A stretch of 62,994 nt of DNA, counting the filler, from Atractiella rhizophila (taxonomy: Eukaryota): NCBI GenBank assembly GCA_021432655.1. It is 3 parts of 2 records of this genome, joined end to end, with 100 filler letters (N's around TTAATTAATTAA, not from the genome) between each part and the next. Parts side by side here need not be neighbours in the genome. Positions count along the whole stretch, not along the records: positions 1 to 11,982 come from MU271602.1; 2 more parts are not named here. One strand, given 5' to 3'. The position numbers and the translations under genes were made by a program. Below, in pieces: positions 1 through 52,660 of the stretch; position 1 is the stretch's first letter, and the number at the start of each line of letters is the position of its first letter. The notes below the pieces were generated by a model. The model was given only the letters and a program-made list of their open reading frames with translations, was not told where the DNA came from and ran no database searches.

Positions 1-3000
1 ACCCACAGGGGTTAAATGCATCAGGTGTTGACAAAATCCACGACCATCGCCTCAAAGTCTAGTCTTCTCAACCAGACACCACCAACCATGGAGAGACTCA
101 GAGCGCTCTGCTGCCCCTGCCTTCCCTCGAGCAACGCCTACGAGCCACTCTTACTCGACAACGAACGCTCAGCAGTCGCCGACCTCCTCTCCTACCTCGA
201 GAACAGGGCTGAGACCAACTTCTTCGACGGACAGCCCCTCCATGCGCTCTCTACGCTGAGCTATAGCGATAATGTCGACCTGCAGAGGAGTGCTGCCCTC
301 GCTTGGGCTGAGATTACCGAGAAAGGTAAGTGTTTATGGCGTTGTTATTACGGCAGTGGATTCCGTGTAGGCGGACGTTAAAGCACGAGATTGTCATGAG
401 AGGAGTATTTCTTATGAGATTGGGTTGTGTGATCTTATACTCGCCAATGTTAGCGTCAGAAGTGGAGAAGTTTATCTCTTCATTTTGTATAAGAGGAGTC
501 ACAACTGCTACAAACGAGGTTCTCTGCTTTGCTGACTCAATCTGGCCCTGAGATATGCTGGCCTTTGGAGTTGCTCTGCAGTCTGCTTCGAGACGGAAGG
601 TGATTTCGTGATCCATGGATGAACCAACCTTCTTCCTGCATTTTCGATCTGTTGGCTCAGTCATGTCTTGTGTCACGAGGGGATGGCTTGCTAGTCAGAA
701 AAATGGCATCGAGACTTGTAATACAACTCTTCTTTATATTAAGCCTCCCGCATTGCATTAGAACCTTCTGCCGACGAATTGAAGAAGCCTCCTGACTCAT
801 ATTGTAGATGTCCGCCCCGTTACTCATGCGACAATCGAGCCCATCCAATTCCTCCTCCAATCTCATGACGTCGAGGTCCAGCGAGCCGCTTCCGCTGCTC
901 TCGGAAATCTGGCCGTCAATGGTAAGCCGGCCTTACGCTTCTTGCAAACGGGTTCTGACACATGTCGCGACAGCGGACAACAAGCTCTTGATCGTGCGAC
1001 TAGGCGGTCTCGAGCCCCTCATCCGTCAAATGCTCAGTCCAAATACCGAAGTCCAATGCAACGCTGTCGGCTGCATCACCAACCTTGCAACTCACGGTCA
1101 GCCACTCCAATCTGTTTCCGTCCCATACTGACGCCGTTCCAGATGAGAATAAAACCAAGATTGCAAAGTCCGGTGCTCTCGTTCCTCTTACGAGGCTGGC
1201 AAAAAGCAAAGATATGCGCGTCCAGCGGAATGCTACTGGTGCTCTCTTGAACATGACGCACAGCGGTGAGTTATCTCCTTGGCCATTCTAAAGTGATATC
1301 GCTCAAAATCGTTACAGATGAGAATCGCCAACAACTCGTCAATGCAGGAGCAATACCCGTCCTTGTAAACCTGCTCAGCTCTCCCGACACCGACGTCCAG
1401 TATTACTGTACAACGGCTCTTTCCAACATTGCTGTCGATGGTTCGTCCTTTTTGCTTGTCTGAGAACCTTACACTAATCCCTGCGCATCGCAGCCAACAA
1501 CCGAAAGAAGTTATCGAATACAGAGCCGAAGCTTGTTCAGAATCTCATCACCCTCATGGACAGCCCTTCGCTTAAGGTCCAGTGTCAAGCCGCTTTGGCA
1601 CTCCGAAACCTCGCATCTGATGGTCCGTTCCCTCTCTTCTCCGTCAAACAGAGCACACCAGTAACTCTATGATTCTACAACAGAGAAATATCAAATCGAG
1701 ATTGTCAAATCCGGAGGTCTTCCCCCGCTTCTTCGTCTCCTTCGATCATCGTTCCTACCTCTTAAACCCACAGGGGTTAAATGCATCAGGTGTTGACAAA
1801 ATCCACGACCATCGCCTCAAAGTCTAGTCTTCTCAACCAGACACCACCAACCATGGAGAGACTCAGAGCGCTCTGCTGCCCCTGCCTTCCCTCGAGCAAC
1901 GCCTACGAACCGCTCTTACTCGACAACGAACGCTCAGCAGTCGCCGACCTCCTCTCCTACCTCGAGAACAGGGCTGAGACCAACTTCTTCGACGGACAGC
2001 CCCTCCATGCGCTCTCTACGCTGAGCTATAGCGATAATGTCGACCTGCAGAGGAGCGCTGCCCTCGCTTGGGCTGAGATTACCGAGAAAGGTAAGTGTTT
2101 ATGGCGTTGTTATTACGGCAGTGGATTCCGTGTAGACGGACGTTAAAGCACGAAATTGTCATGAGAGGAGTATTTCCTATGAGATTGGGTTGTGTGATCT
2201 TATACTCGCCAATGTTAGCGTCAGAAGTGGAGAAGTTTATCTCTTCATTTTGTGTAAGAGGAGGTCACAACTGCCACAAACGAGGTTCTCTGCTTTGCTG
2301 ACTCAATCTGGCCCTGAGATATGCTGGCCTTTGGAGTTGCTCTGCAGTCTGCTTCGAGACGGAAGGTGATTTCGTGATCCATGGATGAACCAACCTTCTT
2401 CCTGCATTTTCGATCTGTTGGCTCAGTCATGTCTTGTGTCACGAGGGGATGGCTTGCTAGTCAGAAAAATGGCATCGAGACTTGTAATACAACTCTTCTT
2501 TATATTAAGCCTCCCGCATTGCATTAGAACCTTCTGCCGACGAATTGAAGAAGCCTCCTGACTCATATTGTAGATGTCCGCCCCGTTACTCATGCGACAA
2601 TCGAGCCCATCCAATTCCTCCTCCAATCTCATGACGTCGAGGTCCAGCGAGCCGCTTCCGCCGCTCTCGGAAACCTGGCTGTCAATGGTAAGCCAGCCTT
2701 ACGCTTCTTACAAACGGGTTCTGACACATGTCGCGACAGCGGACAACAAGCTCTTGATCGTGCGACTAGGCGGTCTCGAGCCCCTCATCCGTCAAATGCT
2801 CAGTCCAAATACCGAAGTCCAATGCAACGCTGTCGGCTGCATCACCAACCTTGCAACTCACGGTCAGCCACTCCAATCTGTTTCCGTCCCATACTGACGC
2901 CGTTCCAGATGAGAATAAAACCAAGATTGCAAAATCCGGTGCTCTCGTTCCTCTTACGAGGCTGGCAAAAAGCAAAGATATGCGCGTCCAGCGGAATGCT

Positions 3001-3533
3001 ACTGGTGCTCTCTTGAACATGACACACAGCGGTGAGTAACCCCCTGAGCCATTCTAAAGTGATATCGCTCAAAATCGTTACAGATGAGAATCGCCAACAA
3101 CTCGTCAATGCAGGAGCAATACCCGTCCTTGTAAACCTGCTCAGCTCTCCCGACACCGACGTCCAGTATTACTGTACAACGGCTCTTTCCAACATTGCTG
3201 TCGATGGTTCGTCCTTTTTGCTTGTCTGAGAACCTTTACTAATCCTTGTGCATCACAGCCAACAACCGAAAGAAGTTATCGAATACAGAGCCGAAGCTTG
3301 TTCAGAATCTCATCACCCTCATGGACAGCCCTTCGCTCAAGGTCCAGTGTCAAGCCGCTTTGGCGCTCCGAAACCTCGCATCTGATGGTCCGTTCATTCT
3401 CTTCTCCGTCCAACAGAGCACACCAATAACTCCTATGATTCCACAATAGAGAAGTATCAAATCGAGATTGTCAAATCTGGCGGCCTTCCTCCGCTTCTTC
3501 GTCTCCTTCGCTCATCGTTCCTACCTCTTATCC
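1..3533. repeat. Tandem direct duplication, unit ~1765 bp (1-1765 vs 1766-~3533)
   Basis: Position 1 (acccacaggggttaaatgca) recurs at 1766. The copies differ only by scattered SNPs and small indels. Confidence 0.95.
88..1763 (+). pseudogene. VAC8: Truncated 5' duplicate of VAC8 (armadillo-repeat vacuolar protein), probably an allelic/haplotype copy
   Basis: Nearly identical to 1853-3533. The spliced ARM-repeat sequence stops at ...[12 protein letters not shown], where the sequence restarts at the VAC8 upstream region. Confidence 0.75.
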
Positions 3534-8665: not shown

Positions 8666-11058
8666 CTAGAGATCCTTCCTTTCTGACCAAATTTCGGTCC
8701 TTGGACTCTCTCCCTTCAACGCCGCTTTCACTTTCTCCACGCCTTCTAGGACACGTATCAAGTTGCCTAATAAGCTTGTAAGTACTCCGAAACAGGTCAA
8801 CCGGGAACGCTCACCTCTGGTAAATCCCTCTATCTCACTCTCAGTCCATCCACGCTTGACCAGTTCCTCAACTAGAGCAGGATATTTCGAGACGTCTTCA
8901 AGTCCAGTTGGTGTCCTATGTCGTTTTGTGAGCTTCGATTTCCCTGCTACTAACGAGAGAGACCAGCGCACGAGTCAATTCCATCGTAGTCACTACCCAC
9001 CCCAACGTGATCCTTGCCTGCAATCAAACCAATTCGATCGACGTGATCTAGCTCCTTCTATTAGAGGCCGAAAGGGGTACTCAGTATCAATAGCCTACCA
9101 GCAACGAGTGAGACGTCGGCATCCGGGCCAACAAAACCTGGCGCGAAGTTGACCATGACGATACCATCTTTCGCTGGAATGTCTTTGGTCTAAATTAGGA
9201 GAAATCAGTGATGCCCGAGCCGCCAAAAAGTAAATCAGACCTCCTCTTCTCCCATACCCCAAGCGTTACCGCCTTTCCTATCGTCACTCGGTTTCTCAAC
9301 TCTGTACTTAGAATATTGCCCTAATCTTGCTAGGATGGAATCGGGGACATTGCGGGGATGATCATTCACGTAGCGGCTCGAGGAGTGGGAGAAAATGGTT
9401 GGCGCTTTGCTCAGCGTTAAAGCTTGTGAAGCAGTTTCAGGAGAAGTGTGCGATCTTGACAAGCATTTTAAGCGTCGAGAAAGGGGTAGAGAAAAAGGTT
9501 CTTACATGTCTATAATCATGCCCAATCTGTTCATCTCCTCGATAAGGGTGCGACCGAACGCGGAGATGCCACCATTGAGTCCAGGGAAGGGATATGTGTA
9601 GCCGCAGGAATCAGCAAACGCGTTATGGCATCCTATTTGTTCATTCATAAGCTGAACCCACACTAAAGGGAGATGATAAAGAACCATGAGTGAGTGTAAC
9701 ATATCGCACGCCGAGGGTATAGAACGTCCGCAGTGTGGCCAAGGAGTTCCCGAGTTGATGACCGCCTTCGATTCCTAGCAGTGAAGCGATCTTTCCCTCT
9801 TTCTGTGACTTTTTAATGTCTGAAGAGGTAAGAGCGAGAGAGAAGCTGTCAGGATATTGAGCGATGAGTTGAAGGGCCACGTCAATCTGTTCCAGGGTAT
9901 CCCGCACACGATCATTCGGTAATAACAGGTCAGAGTTCGTGACTGAGGAGTTTCCAGCTTGATCGGGAGGGCAGTCGGCGTAGACGCTCCAAAAGAACCC
10001 TCCCACGCCCCCTGTGGATAATCAGATCAGCGACTGAAATCTACTCTTTCTTGTCGTGCGGATGCAATAAGGATGGGAGCTGGCGAAAACGGGCTATAAT
10101 ATTGATTCTTCGTTAACACTCCATTGATTCAAAAATAGAGCCTGAAAAAGTGCGTATTCGCATGGTAAGCTGCCCCTACATTATGATTGATACAGTTAAT
10201 AAGGTCGCAACGCACGTCCGCAACATCAACCGGGTTACTGTTGACTTGAAAAAGGATCATGTGGACCACATTGGACTGTGTGAAGCTGACATGAATAACG
10301 AGCAGAAATAAGTGCTATTCGCAACTCAGCCAACCACACAACTTGAGACGTGCCAGAACCTCTGAAAACCAGCCGGGACTCAAAATGTGTCCCATCTTCC
10401 GCCTCTAGTTCAAGTCCAAACTTTTGTACATAAATGCACAGTTCAGACCTAGGTCATACCTGTGGCTGATGGTCAAGGGCAAGTGAAGACGCTAGTTAAA
10501 CTAAACTACGCTGAAGCCTGGATACCGCTTTTCTAAAGTTTATTCACCCCTCGAACAGGACTCCAAATAGCTCAGACGGCTGACAAATGACGAAAAAGTA
10601 CGCCATTCGTGCTCTCAGCCACCGCTCGCTGTCCCTGTCCCTACAAGACAAGTACATACCTTCTCTCAACTTGGGTATATCGACATGCCCACCCACTCCC
10701 TCCTCTCCCGTCTTCCTCAGATCCATATTTCCAGTTTGCAATCCATACTTCCACCGAGCAAAAATGGGCAAGTCGATATGCCCGTCAATGAGAGGATATT
10801 TGTCTAATAATTCCTTAGCTGTTAACTGCTTTTGACTTCCGGTTAAGAGATGCGGTAGGTAGTGGGGCAGTAAGTAGACCACCACGACTAGGACGGAGAG
10901 GAGCGCGAGGAGACGCGTGCGAGATCGGCGATTCGGAGTGGCAGAAGACGTGGGGGGAGGGAGTGTTGAAGTCAAAAACGTAATAACTTCAACAATGTTG
11001 AAGTCAAAAACGTAATAACTTCAACAGGGAGGAGTGGCGCTTTCTCCTGGTTTGCCAT
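8666..11058 (-). pseudogene. Membrane dipeptidase (peptidase M19), copy frameshifted by a 68-bp insertion after codon ~11
   Basis: Motifs [85 protein letters not shown], plus an N-terminal TM anchor. With the insertion the frame from ATG 11058 reads MANQEKAPLLPVEVITFLTSTLLKLLRF*. Confidence 0.85.
10964..11026. mobile_element. 63-bp insertion: two identical 31-bp TG...CA units separated by one A, with a 5-bp TSD (GGGAG)
   Basis: Unit tgttgaagtcaaaaacgtaataacttcaaca at 10964-10994 and 10996-11026, each with 9-bp inverted ends. GGGAG at 10959-10963 and 11027-11031. The empty site is in the other copy at ~14929-14933. Confidence 0.85.
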
Positions 11059-11599
11059 CTTTGCAACGCAGCTTGAGGTGGAAAGGCAGAGTTCGTTGGA
11101 GGCGTGAAATAAATACGAAATTCAATTTGAAAATGATCGATAAGTACTCTAATCTGAGATGCCTATTCTGGAGCTGATGCAACGAGATTGGCTCCGCTCT
11201 CTGTTTCATTTCGACTGCTTGAATCCAGTCAAACCAAGAATCTAAACATTAGTGGTCAACATCGGTGACAAGGTCCTTGGTTTGTTTTGACGTTGGCTTT
11301 GAGCTATCCTTTCGCACATTCTTTCAACACACTTTGCCCAATGGCTGCTGCTGCCATGTATTTCAAGACAACAAATATGACATGTTTTATCTATCAGCAA
11401 GTAGCTGTGTTCAAGAGGATGAAAATGTGTGGCCATTCAAATGGTTTTCATCTTCTTGCTCACTGTGGCAAGATTTCGGAATCGATCGCGAGCGCCAAGA
11501 GCCACAATCTATGAGACGACTCTCTCGATCTATGATCTCAAAAATATCGTGAGTCTATTTCCCCAAAGATTCCATGATGCCCTTCTGACAAATAGTGAA

Positions 11600-11982
11600 T
11601 CAGCCCTCTCCCCCTTCTCCAGCATTTATGAGTGCGCGTAAGGGGAAACTGGCCGCACTACCCAATACCAGTCCGAGAGTGAGAGCTAGAGTCGTTGTAG
11701 TAGCTGCAATCTATTCCAGCCATGTGACGTCAGCCATTTCCTAAACTTAACAAATGGAGCCAAAGGGAAAAGGTATGTCGGATTTTGAGAGCGAAGCCAG
11801 GATGACCCTGAGAGTCGTCGAACTCACATCGATCTCGTCTTTTTCTAGAATTGGATCTCGGATAGATCGTACAGAAATGAGGGTAGAGAGGTAGCCGTTG
11901 GAGAGAGCGAAGGCGAACAGGATGAGGAGGTACACTTTCCCATTGCAAACATCAGCCACACGCGACGAAATGGAGAATGAAA
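11600..11982 (-). CDS. Partial duplicate (3' exons) of the nucleoside transporter gene, cut by an assembly gap
   Basis: Matches 15502-15884: YLLILFAFALSNGYLSTL ... GSAASFPLRALINAGEGGEG*. Confidence 0.7.
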
Positions 11983-12082
11983 NNNNNNNNNNNNNNNNNN
12001 NNNNNNNNNNNNNNNNNNNNNNNNNNTTAATTAATTAANNNNNNNNNNNNNNNNNNNNNNNNNNNNNNNNNNNNNNNNNNNN
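11983..12082. other. Assembly spacer (N run with six-frame-stop linker TTAATTAATTAA)
   Basis: 100-bp N block with the linker at 12027-12038. Confidence 0.98.
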
Positions 12083-13671
12083 ACTTCTACTCATGTCTGG
12101 TGAAAGTGGACGAATCCTATTCTTATGTTCAACAATAGTCCCTCGAGGAAGCCAGACCATACTCACAGGAATTCCAGGAAGCGGGAAAGAGGTTGCGAAA
12201 GCCTCGACTTCCTCCTTCAATTCCCTAATCACCCTTGCGCCATCTCCGTTCCCTTCAGCGGTCTTCAAGAAGTCCTTTAACAACTTGCTCTTCCCGTTTC
12301 CTTCTGTGCAGTTTCCGCAATCTTGACCACCCGGATCCAGAACGCAGCAACATGCGATTTGGTTGCGAGGATGGAGGTGATTACAGGTGTTACCGTGGCT
12401 GGCTTTCGATGGTAACGGTAGGCGGCAAGGGCGGAAGAAATGGACAAGGACATGGCAGCTGCCACTATGTAATGCTGTGCGAGAATAAGCTGTAAGGCAA
12501 AGGAGGGAGTACGCAGACCGATAGGAAGAGGAATGGTGTCGAACGTAACAAGCCGAGAAGAGAGCGATGTGAAGAAAGAGGCGGAGGCTGTTTCAAAGTA
12601 AACATAAAAATTAGTCAAGGTTACAATAAAAGAATACAGAGAAATTGAGAGCAGTATTCCACCCAGTGCAGTGCCGCTGCTCCTAGGATTGCACTTGAGC
12701 TAGCACTAGAGGAGTTGGCCGTGGATCACCGGTCCATTGCAAACCATTGGCCCATAAGAACGCTGCAATGGCAATGACCCATTGACGTGCAACTAATATT
12801 GCCCATTATCCCTCAATCAAGATGGCATACATACCTTGAACTACAAAGTATACTGCCCCTCGGAAACCTCTCCAAGGTATTCAAGCCGTTTGAAATTCCG
12901 AAGTTGTGGTCGAAGCCGTCGCAAAAAGAGCTGGAGAGGTGCAGCACCGAAGCATGTACCCTTCCAGCAAGCTTTTAACTCCAAATGGAGAGGTGTTGGT
13001 GTAGAGAGGACCACTGAGCTTTCTGTGTCGGTGTAAGCATAGCAGGAACGCTTCTGCCATCAATCTAGGAAGTGCATCTCAATAAAAACTAAGGACAAGC
13101 TTGCATGAACGAAGTGATATCCAGAGAGTCCTTTCATACTTATGAACGACTGCCACCATACAGATCCAAGTCCACAGTAAGTTTAGGACTCTCCTTCAAC
13201 CACCCCATGCAAGCAGATAGCAAAAACTTACCTGATGCCTGCATTCCCTCGTCGACTTCCTCGCTAGTTGACAAACCTGCGAAAGGAGGCGGTCGGAGAT
13301 ATGATGTCACATTCAAACGACGACGAACCGAACAAGGCGGAAACGACAAACTCAACAATTCCTCAGCTATCGCCTTTCCTACGCGTGTCAAACTGCTTCT
13401 GTTGCTTGAGGGATATGGTGAGTAGGTTTACGGACGATTTTTTTCACTTTGAACGCGCTTTTCACTCCGGGTCACTAAATTTTCACTTTTGGGGCCCCTG
13501 ATTTTGCGACGCGTTTTTTCCGACAATTGTGAGCATTTCGACTCCGGTCCGACTTCTATGGGGAGAGGGATAATCCTTATGTTATGTGGGAATGTTTTAT
13601 TTTGGTTATTGGAGGTGGAATTGGGCAGAAAAGTGCGTTTTTCGGTCCTAAATTAGCGTGGCGTGCAGACT
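12083..13671 (-). repeat. Dispersed repeat, inverted diverged copy of 33540-34952; carries an SHMT 3' fragment
   Basis: The reverse complements align from agtctgcacgccacgctaatttaggaccg to catgagtagaagt. This copy has extra internal segments (e.g. ~13063-13200). Both ends run into gaps. Confidence 0.9.
12087..12355 (-). pseudogene. Serine hydroxymethyltransferase C-terminal fragment
   Basis: RVVKIAETAQKETG / LLKDFLKTAEGNGDGARVIRELKEEVEAFATSFPLPGIP resembles the fungal SHMT C-terminus. It has frameshifts and no upstream catalytic domain. Confidence 0.65.
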
Positions 13672-13696: not shown

Positions 13697-14960
13697 AGTG
13701 TGTAGCCAAGGAGTTCCCGAGTTGATGACCGCCTTCGATTCCTAGCAGTGAAGCGATCTTTCCCTCTTTCTGTGACTTTTTAATGTCTGAAGAGGTAAGA
13801 GCGAGAGAGAGAAGCTGTCAGGATATTGAGCGATGAGTTGAAGGGCCACGTCAATCTGTTCCAGGGTATCCCGCACACGATCATTCGGTAATAACAGGTC
13901 AGAGTTCGTGACTGAGGAGTTTCCAGCTTGATCGGGAGGGCAGTCGGCGTAGACGCTCCAAAAGAACCCTCCCACGCCCCCTGTGGATAATCAGATCAGC
14001 GACTGAAATCTACTCTTTCTTGTCGTGCGGATGCAATAAGGATGGGAGCTGGCGAAAACGGGCTATAATATTGATTCTTCGTTAACACTCCATTGATTCA
14101 AAAATAGAGCCTGAAAAAGTGCGTATTCGCATGGTAAGCTGCCCCCTACATTATGATTGATACAGTTAATAAGGTCGCAACGCACGTCCGCAACATCAAC
14201 CGGGTTACTGTTGACTTGAAAAAGGATCATGTGGACCACATTGGACTGTGTGAAGCTGACATGAATAACGAGCAGAAATAAGTGCTATTCGCAACTCAGC
14301 CAACCACACAACTTGAGACGTGCCAGAACCTCTGACAACCAGCCGGGACTCAAAATGTGTCCCATCTTCCGCCTCTAGTTCAAGTCCAAACTTTTGTACA
14401 TAAATGCACAGTTCAGACCTAGGTCATACCTGTGGCTGATGGTCAAGGGCAAGTGAAGACGCTAGTTAAACTAAACTACGCTGAAGCCTGGATACCGCTT
14501 TTCTAAAGTTTATTCACCCCTCGAACAGGACTCCAAATAGCTCAGACGGCTGACAAATGACGAAAAAGTACGCCATTCGTGCTCTCAGCCACCGCTCGCT
14601 GTCCCTGTCCCTACAAGACAAGTACATACCTTCTCTCAACTTGGGTATATCGACATGCCCACCCACTCCCTCCTCTCCCGTCTTCCTCAGATCCATATTT
14701 CCAGTTTGCAATCCATACTTCCACCGAGCAAAAATGGGCAAGTCGATATGCCCGTCAATGAGAGGATATTTGTCTAATAATTCCTTAGCTGTTAACTGCT
14801 TTTGACTTCCGGTTAAGAGATGCGGTAGGTAGTGGGGCAGTAAGTAGACCACCACGACTAGGACGGAGAGGAGCGCGAGGAGACGCGTGCGAGATCGGCG
14901 ATTCGGAGTGGCAGAAGACGTGGGGGGAGGGAGGAGTGGCGCTTTCTCCTGGTTTGCCAT
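13697..14960 (-). CDS. Membrane dipeptidase (M19), 5' half of the insertion-free copy, cut by a gap
   Basis: MANQEKAPLLPPPTSS..., TM segment and PLIDGHIDLP are continuous from ATG 14960. The second exon is [12 protein letters not shown]. Confidence 0.8.
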
Positions 14961-15501
14961 CTTTGCAACGCAGCTTGAGGTGGAAAGGCAGAGTTCGTTG
15001 GAGGCGTGAAATAAATACGAAATTCAATTTGAAAATGATCGATAAGTACTCTAATCTGAGATGCCTATTCTGGAGCTGATGCAACGAGATTGGCTCCGCT
15101 CTCTGTTTCATTTCGACTGCTTGAATCCAGTCAAACCAAGAATCTAAACATTAGTGGTCAACATCGGTGACAAGGTCCTTGGTTTGTTTTGACGTTGGCT
15201 TTGAGCTATCCTTTCGCACATTCTTTCAACACACTTTGCCCAATGGCTGCTGCTGCCATGTATTTCAAGACAACAAATATGACATGTTTTATCTATCAGC
15301 AAGTAGCTGTGTTCAAGAGGATGAAAATGTGTGGCCATTCAAATGGTTTTCATCTTCTTGCTCACTGTGGCAAGATTTCGGAATCGATCGCGAGCGCCAA
15401 GAGCCACAATCTATGAGACGTCTCTCTCGATCTATGATCTCAAAAATATCGTGAGTCTATTTCCCCAAAGATTCCATGATGCCCTTCTGACAAATAGTGA
15501 A

Positions 15502-17662
15502 TCAGCCCTCTCCCCCTTCTCCAGCATTTATGAGTGCGCGTAAGGGGAAACTGGCCGCACTACCCAATACCAGTCCGAGAGTGAGAGCTAGAGTCGTTGT
15601 AGTAGCTGCAATCTATTCCAGCCATGTGACGTCAGCCATTTCCTAAACTTAACAAATGGAGCCAAAGGGAAAAGGTATGTCGGATTTTGAGAGCGAAGCC
15701 AGGATGACCCTGAGAGTCGTCGAACTCACATCGATCTCGTCTTTTTCTAGAATTGGATCTCGGATAGATCGTACAGAAATGAGGGTAGAGAGGTAGCCGT
15801 TGGAGAGAGCGAAGGCGAACAGGATGAGGAGGTACACTTTCCCATTGCAAACATCAGCCACACGCGACGAAATGGAGAATGAAACTGGACGGGGCTAGGT
15901 ACGCACAAGAGTCCGATTTGATAGATCCTTTGCCAGTCACATTGCAAGCGAGAATGAGTGGCTGTGTCATGTCCGTCAATACTTCTACCCATGGGATGAT
16001 AAAAGAATGGGGTATGTGTATGACAAAGACGGACCATGAACAGAGTTCTAGCAGCGCTCCACCATGCTAATTCCGTCTTACTGCCTCGATCAAATCCTTT
16101 CAGTTCCACCAGAGCGCGGCCAATCCTAACCAAAGGAGTATCAGCGTCACCAACAGAAGTCAAACGTATATGGTGAAAAATGAGATACCAAAGGGGAACA
16201 CAGGGAAGGGGAAACGGACCAATCTCCAGCATTGAATACCACGAAACCTACAGCAGGCCACCATCCCTGCTCCTCTCCATCCATATCAATCGCCCAACTC
16301 GAAGATCGTATATCGACCGTGATACTAGGAAACAGGGACAGAGTAACCAAGAAAATGTAGAGGACGGCTCCATTCCAGAGTCTCAATTTGGATGCAACAG
16401 ATCGAATGACCCTCCAATTCGACGCAATGTTCTTTTGTCCGGCTCCGACAACGGCTAGCGCTTCAGAAGAAGCTGACGCTGCTGAACGAAGAACGAGGGC
16501 ATAAGTGGGGTCGGTCGTTAGCAGTCGTAGCGCCAGGAGGGAGAGGAGGATGTAAATGAGGCAAACGACAAAGAACGCAGGTACACCTCCTCCTCCCAAT
16601 CCTTCTTCTGTCGCGCCACCATCTGGAGGATACCGAGTAGCCGGAGTATCGGAAGTGAGAGTGGTGACCAGCTGCACGACGGAAATCCCAAAGCCTAACC
16701 CCCCCATGCCAGAGAGGGTGGATTGGAGGTACGTGGGACCGTACAGGGACGCCAGGGCGGTAATCGCATTCTACCCTCCGAATAAAGAGTGAGCGACGCC
16801 TAAAAGGGGGCGGGCACAAAACCGCATACTTGTAGGTATGAACCGACAGCTGATAATGCCAGAGTTACAACGAGCAGGTAAAAGTAATACCACCTAAGTA
16901 ATTTTAAGCATCAACGCGGAGCATAATGACGCAGAACCCACCATTCACTTAAATGTATCACGCTTGTGAGGACGAGCGTGATAAACAGAAACAGAGAGCT
17001 CCAGAGAGCTCCTCTAGCTCTCGAATCCGCCTTACTCTATTACCATAATCAGTATTGCAATAGCTTGATCCGAGACAAAGGCAAGTGAGACATGACTAGT
17101 CTCCAAAAACGCACAACATCTTGTGTCCAATTTGCAGCGACAAGGAAGCCTAAATCTCCTGCCGTGAAAAGGAGGGAGAGAGTGGAGGAGATGCCACGTC
17201 CATGTCCTCTGTTCACGCATTCACGACAGGTTGATCAGATGAAGCAGCTGTGTGTGGGAACATGCGCACGAGGAAGCAAGTCGCGAGGTAAAGTATGGAA
17301 ACACTACGATTAGAGCTGTCCTCCACCAAGCTATGAGTTATCCATGTTCGACAGGTACGAACGCGCTGACCATTCCACGGTAAACTAAATGCGGCTCCAA
17401 GCACAAAGAAGATCCAATATGTTCTCCCATCTTTTACATCTTTTTCTTCCAAAAGGTCCTGCCCACCTCTACTGCTGCTGCTGAAACTAACACGCGAGGC
17501 CTGTCTAGATGTTTGGCGTGACTGCCAGATGAGTGGCTCTGTTTCTAACTCGTCCTCCTCTGTCGCATACTCGTCATCATTGGCTAGGTTAGGAGGTGGC
17601 GGAGAAGTGGGAGAAGAAAGGGAAAGGGTGGAAAGACGATGGGAAGTGCCTGAGGAAGTCAT
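15502..17662 (-). CDS. Equilibrative nucleoside transporter (ENT/FUN26-like), multi-exon
   Basis: Motifs YWIFFVLGAAFSLPWN, GGLGFGISVVQ, IFLVTLSLFPSIT, GFVVFNAGDWIGR, FALSNGYLST, with many TM segments. The start is taken as MTSSGTS (uncertain). Confidence 0.85.
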
Positions 17663-33539: not shown

Positions 33540-34952
33540 AGTCTGCACGCCACGCTAATTTAGGACCGAAAAACGCACTTTTTTTGCCCAATTCCACCTC
33601 CAATAACCAAAACAAAAAATTCCCACATAACATAAGGATTATCCCTCTCCCCATAGAAGTCGGACCGAAGTCGAAATACTCAAAATTGTCGAAAAAACGC
33701 GTCGAAAAAACCAGGGTCCCAAAAGTGAAAATTTGGGTGACACGGAGTGAAAAGCGCGTTCAAAGTGAAAAAAATTGTCCTTAAACCCACTCACTATATC
33801 CCTAAAGCTATAGGTGAGGAATTGTTGAGTTTGTCGTTTCCGCCTTGTTCGGTTCGTCGTCGTTTGAATGTGACATCATATCTCCGACCGCCTCCTTTCT
33901 CACCCTCAGCAACAACTACGCAGGTTTGTCAACTAGCCAGGGAGTCGACGAGGGAATGCAGGCATCAGGTAAGTTTTTGCTATCTGCTTGCATGGAGTGG
34001 CAGAAGCGTTCGTGCTATGCTTACACCGACACAGAAAGCTCAGCGGTCCTCTCTACACCGACAGCTCTCCATTTGGAGTTAAAAGCTTGCTGGAAGGGTA
34101 CACGCTTCGGTGCCGCACCTCTCCAGCTCTTTTTGCGACGGCTTCGACCACAACTCCGGAATTTCAAACGGCTTGAATACCTTGGAGAGGTTTCCGAGGG
34201 TGCAGTATACTTTGTAGTTCAAGGTATGTATGCCATCTTGATTGAGGGATAATGGGCAATATTAGTTGCGCCAATGGGTCATTGCCATTGCAGCGTTCTT
34301 ATGGACCAATGGTTTGCAATGGACCGGTGATCCACGGCCAACTCCTCTGGTGCTAGCTCAAGTGCAATCCTAGGAGCAGCGGCACTGCACTGGGTGGAAT
34401 ACTGCTCTCAGTTTCTCTGTATCCTTTTATTGTAACCTTGACTAATTTTTATGTTTACTTTGGAACAGCCTCCGCCTCTTTCTTCACATCGCTCTCTTCT
34501 CGGCTTGTTACGTTCGACACCATTCCTCTTCCTATCTGTCTGCGTACTCCCTCCCTTGCCTTGCTGCTTATTCTCGCACATCATTGCATAGTGGCAGCTG
34601 CCATGTCCTTGTCCATGTCTTCCGCCTTGCCACCTACCGTTCCAGCCACGGTAACACCTGTGATCACCTCCATCCTCGCAACCACATTGCATATTGCTGA
34701 GTTCTGGATCCGGGTGGTCAAGATTGCGGAAACTTTACAAAAGGAAACTGGAAAGAGCAAGTTGTTAAAGGACTTCTTGAAGACCGCTGAAGATGGCGCA
34801 AGGGTGATTAAGGAATTGAGGAGGAAGTCGAGGCTTTCGCAACCTCTTTCCCGCTTCCTGGAATTCCTGTGAGCATGGTCTGGCTTCCTCGAGGGACTAT
34901 TGTTGAACATAAGAATAGGATTCGTCCACTTTCACCAGACATGAGTAGAAGT
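33540..34952 (+). repeat. Dispersed repeat shared with 12083-13671 (inverted)
   Basis: Direct alignment. An A-tract-rich non-coding ~240 bp at the left end is followed by gene-like fragments. Confidence 0.9.
34690..34948 (+). pseudogene. SHMT C-terminal fragment with retained last intron
   Basis: IAEF..RVVKIAETLQKETGKSKLLKDFLKTAEDGARVIKEL / EVEAFATSFPLPGIP, then a GTGAGC...ATAG intron, then DSSTFTRHE*. Frameshifted. Confidence 0.65.
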
Positions 34953-37062: not shown

Positions 37063-38053
37063 CGCGGATTCGAGGTAGAGGTCGGAAAGCGCCACGAAGC
37101 TAAGTTATGCTGTGCCCAATGCAGATTTAATAAAGAACAAACTGCTAGAAACAGAAAAGGGCTTACAGCTACACATGGTGCTATTCTGCTTCATCCGAGG
37201 GGCGCTCATTTGGCTGCGAAAGTCCATCGTCGCCGTTTCAAGTAATTTCGATTAGAATTAAAACTTTGACACCAAATTCAGCGCTTTCAATGAGGCGAAA
37301 GGAGGATGGAGGGTCTGGGTCTGGCCGACCAGGCAACCGTGGAGAGGGAGGAGGAACAGTGCAGTTCCGCCCTGGGCTGCCAAAGAATTAGCAAACTGCA
37401 ATAAATGAAAGGAACGTGAAGAGAACGCGCACAAAATGGGTCTTAATAATAAAAAGTTGATGAACCATGTTGCTTCATGCTGTCCCAGACCCCAAATACG
37501 CCTCAAGCATGGCCTTCCAACCCCCGTCCAACCGTTGCAGCAATCTTGACAGATAGTTGTCCATTATTGAAATGTTTCCACATTTCCCAATGTTCTAGCA
37601 ATAGTTGGGAAATGCGGTCCCAATGCTGTCAAACCAATTGGCAACGCCTCAAAATGGAGGGGCATTCGCAACGATTGCGCAATGCGTCACCCACAGTTTC
37701 AAAATGCGATGCCAATTGCTTCCCAACCACCAGCACTTCAGGTCGAGATTTTTCAGGGTTGCAGGACCATTCTCAAGGTTGGGCTTGGAGACAATCATTG
37801 TGTGAGCGATGACTATGATTGCAGGATGATGCTGGAAAAAGGGGGTGGTCTAGCTAGGAAGTCTTTGTGCTGGAGAGATGCTTATTACTTTCTGCAACAA
37901 ATATTGAAAACATTTTCGACAACAACCTTTCTTTCACTTTCAATTCCTGTGTGTCCATATGCATGAATGACGTGGTTATCTTCGTCAGGAAACAATCAAG
38001 CACACCCACCATCCCGAACGACAACAAGACTATTCGCAGCAGTATGCTCAGTA

Positions 38054-38595: not shown

Positions 38596-38695
38596 NNNNN
38601 NNNNNNNNNNNNNNNNNNNNNNNNNNNNNNNNNNNNNNNTTAATTAATTAANNNNNNNNNNNNNNNNNNNNNNNNNNNNNNNNNNNNNNNNNNNN
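38596..38695. other. Assembly spacer (N run with TTAATTAATTAA linker)
   Basis: 100-bp N block with the linker at 38640-38651. Confidence 0.98.
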
Positions 38696-45500: not shown

Positions 45501-46820
45501 TTACCACCGCCTTCCGGGTTTGACTCTCCTTTTCCAAGGGCCTAAAGCGTCCCAGCCAGTTTCCATTCTGGAACCATCTGGCATAGGAGTAATTTCGTGA
45601 AAAGTCAGAGGATCGTCAGGTCCATTCGGGAACCTTCAGTAAAGGGAGCTACAACAATCAGTCGACATCCCTCTTTTGAAAAATCACACGGAAACATACC
45701 TCAATTCTCTCCCTCCAGATAAGTACATCGTTGAATCAAGTCCATATCCTGATATGGAGGGATTATAATGGCTGTAGGGATTTCGCGCTCGATCGAGAAG
45801 CATTGGGTTGTAACGATGTCGAGACCCAAGCAGGCTGTCGTCGTGGTACCGGCTAGATGCGTAGAGGGGATGAAGAACTCCATGTTGGAGGGAAGCTCTA
45901 CGAGCACGATCCAAAGTGTCACCCAAAAGCTCATCCTCCAAATCGTATCTTCGACGCTGTGAATCCATATACGGATCGATTCTCGAGAGATAAGGGTCTC
46001 GTAAACCGAGGTAAGGGTCTCGTCTCAGACCCTAGATGTTTATATTTAATTCTGGTTCTCAAGCTGAAAAATGACTTACAAGTGGTGGGTGAAGCAGCGT
46101 ATCATAGCCAATGGCTCGCGCTTTCATGTTCTATTTCCTATCAGCAAACGGACTTGCAGAATAGTTCCTGAAGTGCTCACCCTGGCAAGAGTTAAACTCT
46201 CCAGAGTATCTGCCAGTCTGTTCATTTCATGTCGATCTGCCCTCTGAGACACCGTCAGATTTTTACTCCACAAAGAAGGAGGATGCTACGCGCACCCGTT
46301 CTCGTCGTCTCTCATAGTACTCTTCGTCCTAATCACAGAAGAGAATTAGAACGTAGATAGCGAGTGAATAGAACAGATTACGTACTCGTTCCATCTCTCT
46401 TCTGTGTCTTTCGCTCAGGTGCCTCTCATGTTGCCTCTCTTCGTGTCGCTCCAGTTGATTAGACAACCTGTGCAAACCATGTTCGAGACGATCCACCTTG
46501 TGATTGAGGTACGGATCGGTACTTCCACCATCGTGAAATGCTGAGCCCCAGGTGCCATATTGAGGAAGGGATTGGGGGAAACCGACTTGTCCACCCAAGC
46601 CAGTGGCAAAGTTCCTTCTACCAGGTAAAGTGTTGAAATTATCGCGGTACGGAGCCAGCTGTCGAGTTGAGTTCAAAGAGTTCAACCCGAGTTGTTGGTT
46701 TCGGAATGGGACCATTGAATTTTCATGGCCTTGGTTGTATCCAAATGCATCATCCTCAAACTCGTCATTATCCAAGTCCCGATCCCGAAAACGAGACTGA
46801 AAACGATTTGCGAAAGCCAT
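45501..46820 (-). CDS. Hypothetical hydrophilic protein (multi-exon)
   Basis: MAFANRFQSRFRDRDLDNDEF... exons with GT-AG boundaries, ending ...METGWDALGPWKRRVKPGRRW*. Confidence 0.65.
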
Positions 46821-47791
46821 GGTTCCCACAGGATCTCAGGATTTGGACAAAAACGGCGTGCTTTCCTCAAGCATTCTCCACTTTCCTCTTACATATTTAT
46901 GGCGAGAAGGCTTTGGACCTACTGTAGCTCCCAGATAACAGAGCTTAGAGTTCGAGGGAACGGAAGCGACAAGGTGTTTGGGCACTTGCACACTTTGAAT
47001 GCGAACCCGATTCAACCATCACCGCCGTCATCGTCATTGCCAATTCAATCCTATTCAGTCCGGCTATCGCCCGGCCTGGGCAGATCGAAGAGAAGCGTCA
47101 TGCTTCACCGTACGCGGTATCATCTCAGTTACACTTGGAACTTGTTCGCCTCGTCTCTCCCCGCCATCGACACATCTGCGGACAAAGTTGACTCTTGTGT
47201 CTGAACCCTGCTCTAATGATCATTATCAGCGGTAAGTTCAACGATAATTCGTCCTTAGGCTGTGAATTGGAACCAATCGATAATCATTTGTCGACCTCGT
47301 GCCTTCATAACTTGCACATTCTCTGTCATTGCGTAGCGAACCTCTTTATTGCAAGACAACATTCTGTCATCATTCGTATCACCCTTTTGTGTATCATTGA
47401 GCTATCTCTCATTAAGCAGAGCGCCGATCAGAGTAAGTGCATGCCGAAAAGCAAGGAGCGCAGTGGCCGAGCTGAGGCATTTCTACGATGAGTGCCTACA
47501 ACACCTTGCGAGGATCGGAATGAGGTAGATCTTTTAAGGAATGTGGACCCTCAATCTGAAATGGAAGGGCACATCAAGCTGCTTCACTAGAATACAATGA
47601 ATGTGGGTGAGATATTTTCGCCCTTTTGCCCTTTTTGACGCGCTGGCCAGCTGTCGAGCTTTTGAATCGAGAGGATGCTGCCCAGATCCTTATCGGAAAA
47701 TTGGCGAACTTGGAAAGGTGCAGTAGGAAGGAGATGTACGACAAACTTGGAATGGATCCCGACGATTGATCGTGGTTCATTTCTGCTAATA

Positions 47792-48798
47792 TCATGACGA
47801 TGGATTACGATCACAACGCGTCAATTTCCATCCATGCACTACTTCTCGGATCTCCTTCTCCTTCCTCCATTTTTCATCATCCTCCGGGAATGCGACTCCC
47901 CTCTTCTCTTCAATCACTCGTGTTACGTTCCATCCCGCTTCTTCGGCTAGTTTAAGGAAATTTAAATCTTGCTGCACAAGATGCGGCCGATGATGGGAGA
48001 AGAAACAGAGAACTCCGCTTTCTGAATGGGACAGGGAATCTAGCGACGCAAGAAGTGCTTGGTGCTGTACACTTTGTTATTCATCCGTCCAGGACGTGAG
48101 AGCGGAAAGACCTGCCTGGCTGTGATTAAAAACCAAGTCCGACAATAACAAGAGATCGAACGAAGTAGCGGGAAAGTCCCGGGGTGGCCGTCCCCAAACA
48201 AACCCCTGCTCATTCCAGTTATCAAGACCGTCGTTTCTAGAGCGGTCTCTGTACCTTAGCTACTATTCTTCGTTTCTCTTCAGCAGAAAGATTTCCTTCA
48301 ATGTTCTCTTCTAAATTCTTGATCAGAGGAGCATCTGGATAATCCGTCACTATGACCTAGTTAAACAGTCCGTATCATGATTAATACCTGCAAAAAGAAC
48401 ACGAACCAACCCTGCCCCTTCTTTACAGGCTATCAGGCTAGGCAAACCACCTCCGGCTCCAAATTCAATGACCTTTTTGTTCCTCACAAGCTCGGGATTG
48501 GCTTCGAGATATCGAGCGAGCGAAATCGATGCAGGATAGAGAACATGACCTATTACGGAATAAGTTGATTTCATCTCTCTGCCTCAAGGGACTCGCCCCA
48601 AAGCGGATGGGCGGATGGAAGAGATATTGTCAACTCTTGGCCATTGGAGCACTGATAGCGCACAGGAGTCGGTCGCGGAGCCTGTAGAACTGCATTAGAG
48701 GTTCCCTGGATTCGTAAGAGCTCAGGTAGATACAGTACCTCTGGTTCAGGGGAAGGAGATCCTCCAAAAATGTTGTGCACTTCGATTTCGTCTTCCAT
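47792..48798 (-). CDS. EFM7: EFM7/NNT1-type SAM-dependent protein methyltransferase (Methyltransf_16), copy 1
   Basis: Motifs HPLWG|HVLYPAS, VIEFGAGGGLPSL, VTDYPD, FDLLLLSDLVFNHSQH, FFSHHRPHL, VVHGWKL. Confidence 0.85.
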
Positions 48799-49108
48799 TT
48801 GTGTTTCCGTGTTTCCGTCTTGTCCAACAAACTTTACAAAGAAGGTTTCTATGTGTGGCGAGAAGAGAAGATAAGCAATCGACGAAGGCATGACGTCCAC
48901 ATCCATTTTGCCATTCAGCCATTCAGCTCTTTTGATGAGACTCGACGTGGTCAGCGATGTAGTGCTTCCAGAAAATTGTCGCACGAGCATCGCACCAAAT
49001 CTCACTCCCCAACTTCCAGTCGTACCTTGTATTACCTCTGTTACCTCTCGAGAGGTTGAATACAGCAAGTCTACTCCCTTTGTCGCGTGATTCTGAACAA
49101 AATGTGAA

Positions 49109-49558
49109 GAACAGATTACGTACTCGTTCCATCTCTCTTCTGTGTCTTTCGCTCAGGTGCCTCTCATGTTGCCTCTCTTCGTGTCGCTCCAGTTGATTAG
49201 ACAACCTGTGCAAACCATGTTCGAGACGATCCACCTTGTGATTGAGGTACGGATCGGTACTTCCACCATCGTGAAATGCTGAGCCCCAGGTGCCATATTG
49301 AGGAAGCGATTGGGGGAAACCGACTTGTCCACCCAAGCCAGTGGCAAAGTTCCTTCTACCAGGTAAAGTGTTGAAATTATCGCGGTACGGAGCCAGCTGT
49401 CGAGTTGAGTTCAAAGAGTTCAACCCGAGTTGTTGGTTTCGGAATGGGACCATTGAATTTTCATGGCCTTGGTTGTATCCAAATGCATCATCCTCAAACT
49501 CGTCATTATCCAAGTCCCGATCCCGAAAACGAGACTGAAAACGATTTGCGAAAGCCAT
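49109..49558 (-). pseudogene. Truncated duplicate of exon 1 of the 45501-46820 gene
   Basis: Same MAFANRF...REMER exon, cut at the duplication junction inside the following intron. Confidence 0.7.
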
Positions 49559-50520
49559 GGTTCCCACAGGATCTCAGGATTTGGACAAGAACGGCGTGCT
49601 TTCCTCAAGCATTCTCCACTTTCCTCTTACATATTTATGGCGAGAAGGCGTTGGACCTACTGTAGCTCCCAGATAACAGAGCTTAGAGTTCGAGGGAACG
49701 GAAGCGACAAGGTGTTTGGGCACTTGCTTTGAATGCGAACCCGATTCAACCATCACCGCCCGCCGTCATCGTCCTTGCCAATTCAATCCAATTCAGTCCG
49801 GCTATCGCCCGGCCTGGGCAGATCGAAGAGAAGCGTCATGCTTCACCGTACGCGGTATCATCTCAGTTACACTTGGAACTTGTTCGCCTCGTCTCTCCCC
49901 GCCATCGACACATCTGCGGACAAAGTTGACTCTTGTGTCTGAACCCTGCTCTAATGATCACTATCAGCGGTAAGTTCAACGATGTCCAGGCAATTCGTCC
50001 TTCGGCTGTGAATTGGAGCCAATCATTTGTCGACCTCGTGCCTTCATAACTTGCACATTCTCTGTCATTGCGTAGCGAACCTCTTTATTGCAAGACAACA
50101 TTCTGTCATCATTCGTATCATCGTTTTGTGTATCATTGAGCTATCAGGCTATCTCTCATTAAGCACAGCGCCAATCAGAAGTAAGTGCATGCCGAAAGCA
50201 AGGTGCGCAGTTTGCTGAGCTGAGGCATTTCTACGATGAGTGCCTACGACACTTGCGAGGATCGGAATGAGGTAGATCTTTTAAGGAACGTGGACCCCCA
50301 ATCTGAAATGGAAGGGCTGCTCCACTAGAATACAATGAATGTGGGTGAGATATTTTCGCCCTTTTTGACGCGCTGGCCAGCTGTCGAGCTTTTGAATCGA
50401 GAGGATCTGCCCTGATCCTTATCGGAAAATTGGCGAACTTGGAAAGGTGCAGCGTGAAAGAGATGTGCGACAAACTTGGAATGGATCCCGACGATTGATC
50501 GTGGTTCATTTCTGCTAATA

Positions 50521-51528
50521 TCATGACGATGGATCACGATCGCAACGCGTCAATTTCCATCCATGCACTACTTCTCGGATCTCCTTCTCCTTCCTCCATT
50601 TTTCATCATCCTCCGGGAATGCGACTCCCCTCTTCTCTTCAATCACTCGTGTTACGTCCCATCCCGCTTCTTCGGCTAGTTTAAGGAAATTTAAATCTTG
50701 CTGCACAAGATGCGGCCGATGATGGGAGAAGAAACAGAGAACTCCGCTTTCTGAATGGGACAGGGAATCTAGCGACGCAAGAAGTGCTTGGTGCTGTACA
50801 CCTTGTTATTCATCCGTCCAGGACGTGAGAGCGGAAAGACCTGCCTGGCTGTGATTAAAAACCAAGTCCGACAATAACAAGAGATCGAACGAAGTAGCGG
50901 GAAAGTCCCGGGGTGGCCGTCCCCAAACAAACCCCTGCTCATTCCAGTTATCAAGACCGTCGTTTCTAAAGCGGTCACCGTACCTTCGCTACTATTCTCC
51001 TTTTCTCTTCAGGAGAAAGATTTCCTTCAATGTTCTCTTCTAAATTCTTGATCAGAGGAGCATCTGGATAATCCGTCACTATGACCTAGTTAAACTGTCC
51101 GTATCATGATTAATACGTGCAAAAAGAACACGAACCAACCCTGCCCCTTCTTTACAAGCGATCAGGCTAGGCAAACCACCTCCGGCTCCAAATTCAATGA
51201 CCTTTTTGTTCCTCACAAGCTCGGGATTTGATTCGAGATATCGAGCAAGCGAAATCGATGCAGGATAGAGAACGTGACCTAATACTGAATAAGTTGAATT
51301 TCATCTCTCTGCTTCAAGGGACTCGCCCCAAAGTGGATGGGCGGATGGAAGAGATATTGTCAACTCTTGGCCGTTGGAGCACTGATAGCGCACGGGCGTC
51401 GGCCGCGGAGCCTGTAGAACTGGATTAGAGGTTTCTTGGATTCGTAAGAGCTCAGGTAGATACAGTACCTCTGGCTCAGGGGAAGGAGATCCTCCAAAAA
51501 TGTTGTGCACTTCGATTTCGTCTTCCAT
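50521..51528 (-). CDS. EFM7: EFM7/NNT1-type methyltransferase, copy 2 (probable allele)
   Basis: Same exon structure and motifs as 47792-48798, with few amino-acid differences. Confidence 0.85.
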
Positions 51529-51838
51529 TTGTGTTTCCGTGTTTCCGTGTCCAACAAAGTTTACAAAGAAGGTTTCTATGTGTGGCGAGAAGAGAAGATA
51601 AGCAATCGACGAAGACATGACGTCCACATCCATTTTCATTTTGCCATTCAGCCATTCAGCTCTTTTGATGAGACTCGACGTGGTCAGCGATGTAGTGCTT
51701 CCAGAAAATCATCGCACGAGCATTGCACCAAATCCCACTCCGCAACTTCCAGCCATACCTTGTGTGTGTGTGACTGCTCGAAAGGTTGAATACACGTAGT
51801 TGAAGCTCTACTCACTGTGTCGCGTGATTCCGAACAAA

Positions 51839-52660
51839 ATGTAAGCCGCACGCCACAATATCAAATCTTTACTGACGCTTTTGTGAGCATATAGGCCTTT
51901 ACTCTCAGCCAGAACTTACGTTGCGGATGCACCAGCTTTACGTCGCCGGTACTCTGCATCTGAACTCTCATCGGCTCCAGCAACATCTTACTACAGGGAC
52001 CACGGAACATCTCATCGAATTAACCAGCTGGAACAACAAAAGGATATCCTTGAGCATGCGATTAAGTTGGAAAAACTTGAAATAGAGAGGAGAGAGGAGC
52101 TTCAGAGGGAGAGGATGAGGCAGTGGGAAAAAGAGAGGAATTTTGAGAGGAAGAGAAATCAGCTTCAAAGGCAAAGAAGCTCATCTCACGGAAGCTACGG
52201 TGCGTACACTTTCTCTGGCCATGCCAATTGGTTTATGTGTTTTCTATCAGGCTCTGGCCTAGACTACCCATATAACTACTACGTGTCGCCTTCTTCGACG
52301 TATTCCCAATCAAGTTCTTCTCGAATGCGGCGTCCTTCTATGCCTTCTCTACCTTCTTCTGAGCTTGTAGCACGCTCGCGCTCGTCAAGGTATTCGTTGT
52401 CCAATCAGCTTTCTGGTTTTCACCTTTCCTCTCGAACCAATGTACCTGCTGGCTATCGTCTTTCCGCCAATCTAGGACAGGTTCGAACGGGCATGGAAGA
52501 TTCATTATACAGCCCGGATGAGGCGAGGCAAATTCTTCTCGAGAAACTCGCGAGAGTCGGAAGGGAGAGAGGAGCAAATGGAATCATTGGAGTTCGCGTT
52601 GGACGTGTCGGACGAGAGATATGGGCGACGGGCGACGCAGTTGTGTTCGGGAGATATTGA
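51839..52660 (+). CDS. Hypothetical protein with C-terminal YbjQ/UPF0145-like segment
   Basis: AT|G across intron 51841-51894 gives MPLLSARTY..., in frame with the 52067-52660 ORF. C-terminus EARQILLEKLARVGRERGANGIIGVRV...WATGDAVVF. Confidence 0.65.

Follow-up and report, generated by a model that had tools for sequence, protein, structure and literature searches.

One allele of a dipeptidase gene in Atractiella rhizophila is interrupted by two identical 31-bp units that derive almost entirely from the tip of a long terminal repeat (LTR) of a Ty1/copia family resident in the same genome. We regard the insert, which breaks a single dipeptidase allele, as a real-looking, lone, and recent by-product of this copia family; it probably arose once, through an accident of copying, as opposed to representing a new kind of miniature element. 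It is also likely to represent a single dead-end insertion of aberrant reverse-transcription products, and the route that we tentatively favor is one in which folded-back copia cDNA tips were inserted by repair at a site resembling the polypurine tract (PPT) of the element.

Structure of the insert and the dipeptidase locus

The window refers throughout to the whole stretch of DNA that was analyzed (62,994 nucleotides, filler included, from assembly GCA_021432655.1), and all coordinates count along it. The features relevant to the insert, including possible copies of a target-site duplication (TSD) and comparisons with the primer-binding site (PBS) of the element, are as follows.

8666-11058, minus strand: M19 membrane dipeptidase gene; 3' end approximate, taken from the open frame
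10659-11058, minus strand: first coding exon of the dipeptidase gene; the insert falls in codon 11
10959-10963, plus strand: left GGGAG, either the left TSD copy or the last five PPT bases
10964-10994, minus strand: first 31-bp unit, made up of U3 bases 1-26 of the copia LTR followed by CAACA; inverted repeat of 9 bp at its ends, loop of 13 bases
10995, plus strand: single A between the units, different from both the base that opens the PBS and the base that closes the PPT
10996-11026, minus strand: second 31-bp unit, identical to the first; its end at 11026 is an authentic U3 terminus
11027-11031, plus strand: right GGGAG, host sequence
13700-15884, plus strand: second assembly of the dipeptidase locus, overlapping 9733-11982; not a paralog
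14929-14933, plus strand: empty site with one GGGAG; 68-base skip in contigs of runs X1, X2, and X4

Re-reading of the window sequence confirmed every base of the GGGAG-unit-A-unit-GGGAG layout described in an earlier note on this DNA, and the perfect 9-bp inverted ends that it had assigned to each unit were recovered on folding as a 9-bp stem (z about -4.5 to -4.9 against shuffles). The 31-mer was found twice in the window at up to three mismatches, with an expectation of 0 from 100 shuffles, and no 31-mer of the window besides the two units has a perfect 9-bp terminal inverted repeat. The interior of the insert consists of a single base, in agreement with the claim that it contains neither PBS nor PPT, and this A at 10995 was presumably added without a template.

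The Pfam domain PF01244 was detected in three of the four scanned frames of the dipeptidase gene, and its intron joints are visible in the RNA-type contigs of X3 and X4, the introns being mostly 48-56 bases long, a size suggestive of a fungus. Comparison of both copies of the locus confirmed the net 68-bp difference that had been reported to break the dipeptidase: in the filled allele a stop is reached after 28 codons, within the insert, while the first exon of the empty version is open. The predicted effect of the insert is a null dipeptidase allele beside intact alleles.

What had been taken for a second gene copy does carry a single GGGAG at this position, but it is the empty allele of the same locus, assembled twice. 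Apart from the insert, 13700-15884 and 9733-11982 are 99.6-99.9% identical; the former lacks the 3' part of the dipeptidase gene, and both lie on one scaffold, separated by two gaps (2045 N and 25 N) and a misplaced 1.6-kb piece. To the right of the insert, the filled and empty alleles differ at about one site in 950 bp. Read support was drawn from assembled contigs of runs X1-X4, and contig depth inside and outside the overlap is equal (332 versus 347 for X1; 244 versus 221 for X2), indicating one locus with two alleles. A true gene duplication is ruled out by this equal depth, and the assembly contains no third copy. A divergent haplotype with roughly one third of the depth is also present in X1 and X2, and the empty site is crossed by two contigs, a pattern that we read as two empty alleles and one filled, contig depth being no copy number. 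X4, from another sample, carries the empty site, indicating that the insert is the derived state. X1 and X2 come from one sample, perhaps the source of the assembly, and do not count as independent support; X3 has no cover at 11040-11159.

Several other features of the window concern its assembly. Long repeats with 94-98% identity (1-3530, 46370-51845, and 12083-13671 versus 33540-34952) are probably haplotypes assembled side by side, and the read contigs suggest two haplotype classes near the insert at about 2:1. The stretches N44-TTAATTAATTAA-N44 at 11983-12082 and 38596-38695 are artificial joins, the first of which replaces the 2045-N scaffold gap.

The parent Ty1/copia family

The proposed link of the insert to LTR retroelements was borne out by the identification of a Ty1/copia family in the same genome. 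The right 14 bases of the unit match 30 places in the genome, versus 1 in the control, and 27 of the 30 are one end of one LTR family; the genome-wide search for full LTRs with the unit's end that the earlier note had called for thus led to a copia LTR, most commonly 236 bp long, with 27 such ends. A purine tract lies beside the shared end and a PBS-like 12-mer beside the other, implying that the element reads on the minus strand of the window and that the shared end is the start of U3. The whole 236-base LTR is covered at 99-100% in 14 of 40 scored matches, indicating that the family is young, and among the 22 LTR rows for which both ends were located, 8 have a 5-bp TSD; in this count, three copies lying in identical context were merged. 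The parent family displays TG...CA LTRs, a 5-bp TSD, a PBS after the 5' LTR, and a PPT before the 3' LTR.

Coding domains were assigned with Pfam. Retrotran_gag_2, Pol_BBD, gag_pre-integrs, rve, and RVT_2 occur in copia order in two copies (L035 and L036) of a sister subfamily whose LTR is about 91% alike, and a protease-type domain was also placed in copia order (gag, protease-type, integrase, RVT_2) in two sister-subfamily copies. L036 is a 6.07-kb element with GGTAT on both sides. At a further locus (L040), RVT_2 adjoins an LTR that is 100% identical to the query LTR, and no complete copy of the exact subfamily was present in the 12 regions fetched. The PBS of the family presumably resembles the anticodon arm of an initiator tRNA. 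Half-tRNA priming is described for copia and Ty5 in the available text of one study (PMC5371799), and of 38 matching places, the 30 that were fetched contained no tRNA-iMet primer gene.

Other observations on LTRs of this genome were made in the course of the same searches. The identical 12-base PBS follows directly on the LTR in at least four other LTR families (L072-L101). LTR variants of 162-174 bp are represented by L015 (G000:C98, 165 bp), L011, L031, L027, and L009. L015 is a solo LTR with a 5-bp TSD that lacks exactly 71 bases beginning with GT and ending with AG when read in the orientation of the element, located between direct repeats, and these were lost either by repeat-mediated deletion or as a spliced intron. 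For L012/L022 and L011/L017, the same host flank occurs twice, next to a solo LTR in one place and next to a PPT-bearing 3' LTR in the other, and some of the solo LTRs may be either allelic to full elements or produced from them by collapse in the assembly. In L035 (G000:C240), the 3' LTR is broken after about 163 bases by a sequence beginning with TG, which is probably a nested LTR element.

Derivation of the 31-bp unit

Each unit consists of an exact copy of U3 bases 1-26 plus CAACA, the five bases that complete the hairpin. Positions 10959-10972 correspond to the last five PPT bases plus U3 1-9, a 14-base exact match to the PPT/U3 junction, and 10969-10994 to U3 26-1 of the opposite strand; the pieces U3 1-9 and U3 26-1 recur at 10996-11004 and 11001-11026, leaving over only the A at 10995. 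By this parse, a single 31-base stretch of the element (last five PPT bases plus U3 1-26), read on alternating strands, accounts for 67 of the 68 inserted bases.

The unit itself can be read in two ways, either as the product of a 205-bp deletion that joins U3 to the tip of U5 with a 2-base overlap, or as a fold-back of U3 in which ACTT pairs with AAGT (4-base overlap, 13-base loop) and is extended to its own start. All 10 copies with U3 of the unit's type for which both ends were located terminate in GTTTCAACA. This U5 end yields only a 7-bp inverted repeat with a 2-base overlap, compared to the 9 bp of the unit, and the fold-back therefore fits better; it predicts 9 bp, whereas by simple arithmetic a deletion would give 9 bp once in 16. 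For the bare 26-mer, the lowest-energy fold is a 4-bp snap-back, but it is weak (-0.2 kcal/mol), and 80 of 200 shuffles fold equally well. The earlier suggestion of a deletion remnant of an LTR element accordingly holds in that all letters come from an LTR tip, though a plain deletion accounts for them less well than a fold-back. The central junction lies exactly at LTR termini, as free cDNA ends would be expected to give.

Three further origins were considered and rejected. Three separate deletions of a full element that happened to leave two identical units would require too many exact coincidences. A fold-back chimera of the sequencing library would invert the flank, and no inverted flank was seen. 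Slippage duplication of one unit would leave a G or nothing between the units, not an A.

The flanking GGGAG and the polypurine tract

The flanking 5-bp repeat had been interpreted as a TSD made by an integrase. The repeat is present, but GGGAG is also the last five bases of the PPT of the copia family, so that an integrase-made duplication is not established. The host left end matches the PPT exactly over 5 bases and at 8 of its last 10. The chance that a target 5-mer of the family is CTCCC is about 1 in 350, a rough figure derived from 26 distinct flank 5-mers of which a few may stem from miscalled ends, and the chance of CTCCC as the TSD is 1 in 1024 if 5-mers are uniform; since the coincidence with the PPT was noticed post hoc, its weight is reduced a few fold. 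A 5-bp flanking repeat is thus to be treated with caution, as it is no proof of integrase action where it equals the end of a PPT.

Proposed route of insertion

The identity of GGGAG with the PPT end, the fold-back parse of the unit, and precedents from yeast together lead us to prefer insertion by repair. In this scheme, a 26-base plus-strand product begun at the PPT would fold back, with ACTT on AAGT, and be extended to its own 5' end to give a 31-base hairpin unit; where the PPT bases were still attached, copying would run on and leave a 3' CTCCC tail. Where the gene was broken or gapped, the tail could then anneal to GGGAG, and the host end would prime synthesis that copied the unit and added an untemplated A at the free end. 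A second unit would subsequently be copied or ligated on and its end joined to the right flank, which would keep its own GGGAG, so that a 5-bp repeat could arise without integrase at that end. The insert has no promoter, PBS, or internal PPT, predicting that it cannot be copied again.

Published work, as far as the text of the sources cited here was available, offers precedents for such a scheme. In fission yeast, integrase-independent cDNA of Tf1 inserts where the host matches the PPT or PBS, these motifs are copied into single-stranded cDNA tails, untemplated bases occur at cDNA ends, and the process depends on Rad52 (PMC11042837). In budding yeast, pieces of Ty1 cDNA from the 3' LTR are a hotspot for capture at breaks, and inserts of multiple fragments are common (PMC11372161). 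Inverted two-piece inserts in yeast show 2-11 bases of microhomology with junctions 2-20 bp apart, and short fold-back inversions arise in free single-stranded DNA (PMC11724301). With a 4-base overlap and a 13-base gap, the insert lies within these ranges, and the letters at its junctions (a 1-base overlap at 11026 and one added base) are compatible with non-homologous end joining.

Other evidence counts against insertion by repair. A repeat of exactly 5 bp together with exact TG/CA ends on both sides favors an integrase, and nothing in a repair mechanism requires exactly 5 bp. Moreover, pairs of pieces from one locus in the same orientation are very rare in the yeast data, as reported in the available text (PMC11724301). 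The reading also rests on one example, with no second case of the match to the PPT.

Read contigs and the possibility of an assembly artifact

The contigs of X1 and X2 start exactly at 11026, the position of the first 31-mer that is again common to the filled and empty alleles, and this break implies that a second path enters at the right junction. Among the pieces listed for X1 and X2, no contig spans the interior of the insert, and none has a loose end near 10970, where the left junction of a full LTR would appear.

We consider it unlikely that the doubled unit is a product of assembly or gap filling and that the true allele contains a full LTR, an entire element, or just one 31-bp unit. Assembly of the region is poor (gaps of 2045 N and 25 N and a 2.25-kb unmerged overlap), the misplaced 1.6-kb piece is 94% like another part of the window, and the lack of a contig across the interior among the pieces listed points the same way. 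The share of sampled words recovered (0.96 for X1 and 0.95 for X2) likewise fits 31-60 missing 31-mers better than none; under a lossless index, the X1 value has P of 0.018 for a real dimer, 0.26 for a single unit, and 0.38 for a full LTR, although this is a weak test, since words on short contigs may be missing from the index. Both the missing words and the absent loose end would be compatible with a single unit. In contrast, a full LTR should yield a contig at the junction in which about 19 letters hang loose behind 10970, and no such contig occurs among the pieces listed, even though the loose ends of two other unassembled insertions are visible (11034 and 11250 in both runs; 11251 in X1). 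The collapse of a full-length insertion in the assembly, as raised in the earlier note, is accordingly disfavored, and an artifact of any of these kinds is doubtful. Additionally, other young copies were assembled as whole LTRs or contig ends, and the 7 N runs in the window together with 170 overlapping loci (518,706 bases) include no single-N gap, nor is any further exact repeat of at least 20 bases split there by one base. The insert-bearing stretch agrees with the read contigs where these are listed, and overlaps of 4-7 bases would probably be too short for an assembler to join.

The contigs also revealed insertions elsewhere. The loose end at 11034 leads to G000:C49:101696 and 105570 (L174 and L175), neither of whose assembled copies has an LTR, and the reads probably contain one more insertion of this copia family, at a GGAGG site on C49, that is missing from the assembly. 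C49 was rejected as a donor locus for the right junction, the site being unrelated and without an LTR in the assembly. An extra insertion that is absent from the assembly occurs in contigs of X1, X2, and X3 at 11250-11251, some 190 bp upstream of the start codon of the dipeptidase gene. It has inverted-repeat ends, one end motif of which occurs 11 times in the genome (control, 0), once in the window near 37856, and a DNA transposon of more than 1.5 kb is its likely identity.

Alternative origins and the question of an element class

If the interior is taken as assembled, the 5-bp repeat and the exact outer ends could be explained by a full element with a true GGGAG TSD that later collapsed in the chromosome to the doubled hairpin, an account that we judge quite improbable. 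By this route, a chance 12-bp inverted repeat around one LTR would allow template switching to delete 205 bp, the rest would be lost by LTR-LTR recombination, and the hairpin would be doubled by staggered nicking, fill-in, and end joining. The match to the PPT would then become a cause, since GGGAG and the 7-bp inverted repeat of the LTR make up the 12 bp, and solo LTRs as well as internally shortened LTRs (162-174 bp) do occur in the family. On the other hand, three or four more events would be needed in an allele that differs at only about 1 site per 950 bp, no single unit or other intermediate exists in the genome, and a 9-bp stem makes a weak cruciform. A somewhat more doubtful proposal is that copia integrase used two separate 31-bp fold-back duplexes in one concerted reaction, leaving a true 5-bp TSD, after which host end joining sealed both free ends with one added base. 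This accounts for the 5-bp repeat and the exact TG/CA at the outer ends, features that the family shows as well, and both ends of a unit begin with the same 9 U3 bases. According to the available part of an in vitro study, recombinant Ty1 integrase performs efficient concerted integration with blunt LTR-end duplexes of 22-30 bp, prefers U3, and generates a linearized target with a donor at each end (PMC8487063). Two donors would also be simpler to invoke than one 63-bp duplex, which is probably too stiff to join its own ends. The proposal nevertheless leaves the identity of TSD and PPT end as a coincidence of 1 in 350-1000, no in vivo case was found in the literature searched, and the insert is a single example.

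Least probable by far, to the point of being remote, is membership in a replicating family of ultra-small non-autonomous elements. In form the insert resembles an LTR-interior-LTR element, having TG...CA ends and a flanking 5-bp repeat, and it is recent and polymorphic, but with no PBS, PPT, or R region inside it has no route through RNA. The undescribed micro-element class contemplated in the earlier note thus finds no support in an insert that exists as a single copy, has no internal PBS or PPT, and has no second dimer as a counterpart. The genome-wide check for other monomers or dimers of the 31-mer with different TSDs found none: the 51-Mb assembly contains no further copy of the unit or of its left 16 bases, the spaced inverted repeat of the unit occurs nowhere else in the genome, and all 23 other TGTTGAA...TTCAACA stretches (up to 47 bp) lack a flanking repeat of 3-9 bp. 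A loose dimer pattern covering TGTTG...CAACA families gave 33 matches (control, 22), and among the 30 fetched a tandem was present at the dipeptidase locus only. End-to-end LTR junctions were sought as well (18 places versus 4 in the control), and none of the 14 viewed among the 17 others is LTR-related. In JGI metagenomes the 31-mer had 0 matches, and the 9 metagenome matches of the 20-base unit end were all limited to 20-21 bases. One candidate second mini-unit (C62, C587) proved to be a single intron-end stretch in two haplotypes. Within the largely open-access literature searched, there was no report of an LTR dimer made of tips only.

Implications

One copy in one draft assembly defines no system. 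If the interior is real, the insert would be a natural, gene-disrupting case of stray LTR-retrotransposon cDNA ends written into a chromosome, events that have so far been investigated chiefly with reporter assays in yeast. Annotation of transposable elements passes over inserts this short, which resemble micro-elements flanked by TSDs and are liable to be misnamed. Should the joining of two short donors by integrase be the true origin, active LTR elements could knock out genes via tip-only by-products that annotation misses, and the case would gain greater weight if an integrase were shown to use such short donors in vivo.

Comparison with known systems

The internal domain of a terminal-repeat retrotransposon in miniature (TRIM) requires a PBS and a PPT, and the insert has neither. 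With TRIMs, as characterized in the available text of two studies (10.1101/010850, PMC6934838), it shares two identical TG...CA direct repeats, an origin from LTR retrotransposons, and a genic site; TRIMs, however, keep an internal domain and form families, while the insert has a one-base interior and one copy. The smallest TRIM of a 2014 survey measures 233 bp with 52-bp LTRs, as far as the available text goes (10.1101/010850). Nor does the insert resemble a MITE, its inverted repeat being the start of the copia U3, present in a single copy, and not shared with a DNA transposon. Solo LTRs of the copia family, of which the genome has 8 cases, are similar in consisting of LTR sequence only between 5-bp repeats, but they are single and 163-236 bp long, whereas the insert uses 26 of 236 bases twice and nothing from the middle of the LTR.

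Closer likenesses are found among cDNA insertions that bypass integrase. In the available account of Tf1 and HIV-1 (Li et al. 2022, PMC11042837), integrase-independent insertions share with the insert a host match to the PPT end upstream of an intact U3, and the Tf1 system additionally shares the loss of the distal part of the element and untemplated bases at cDNA 3' ends. Tf1 is of the Ty3/gypsy type, while the parent of the insert is a copia element. Unlike Tf1 insertions, the insert uses only 26 U3 bases, twice and from both strands, and is flanked by a 5-bp repeat, one copy of which is perhaps derived from the element. Capture at breaks in yeast (PMC11372161, PMC11724301), as described in the available portions of these papers, has in common with the insert an LTR-end cDNA donor and, at the junctions elsewhere, 0-1 base of overlap, but the yeast cases arose at induced laboratory breaks, partly in mutants, and the insert is a natural allele. 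The direct repeat of an inverted pair that it forms is very rare in the accessible yeast data (PMC11724301). The fold-back inserts described in the available text of the same study (PMC11724301) nonetheless share with each unit the inverted pieces of one locus, a 4-base microhomology, and a 13-base gap.
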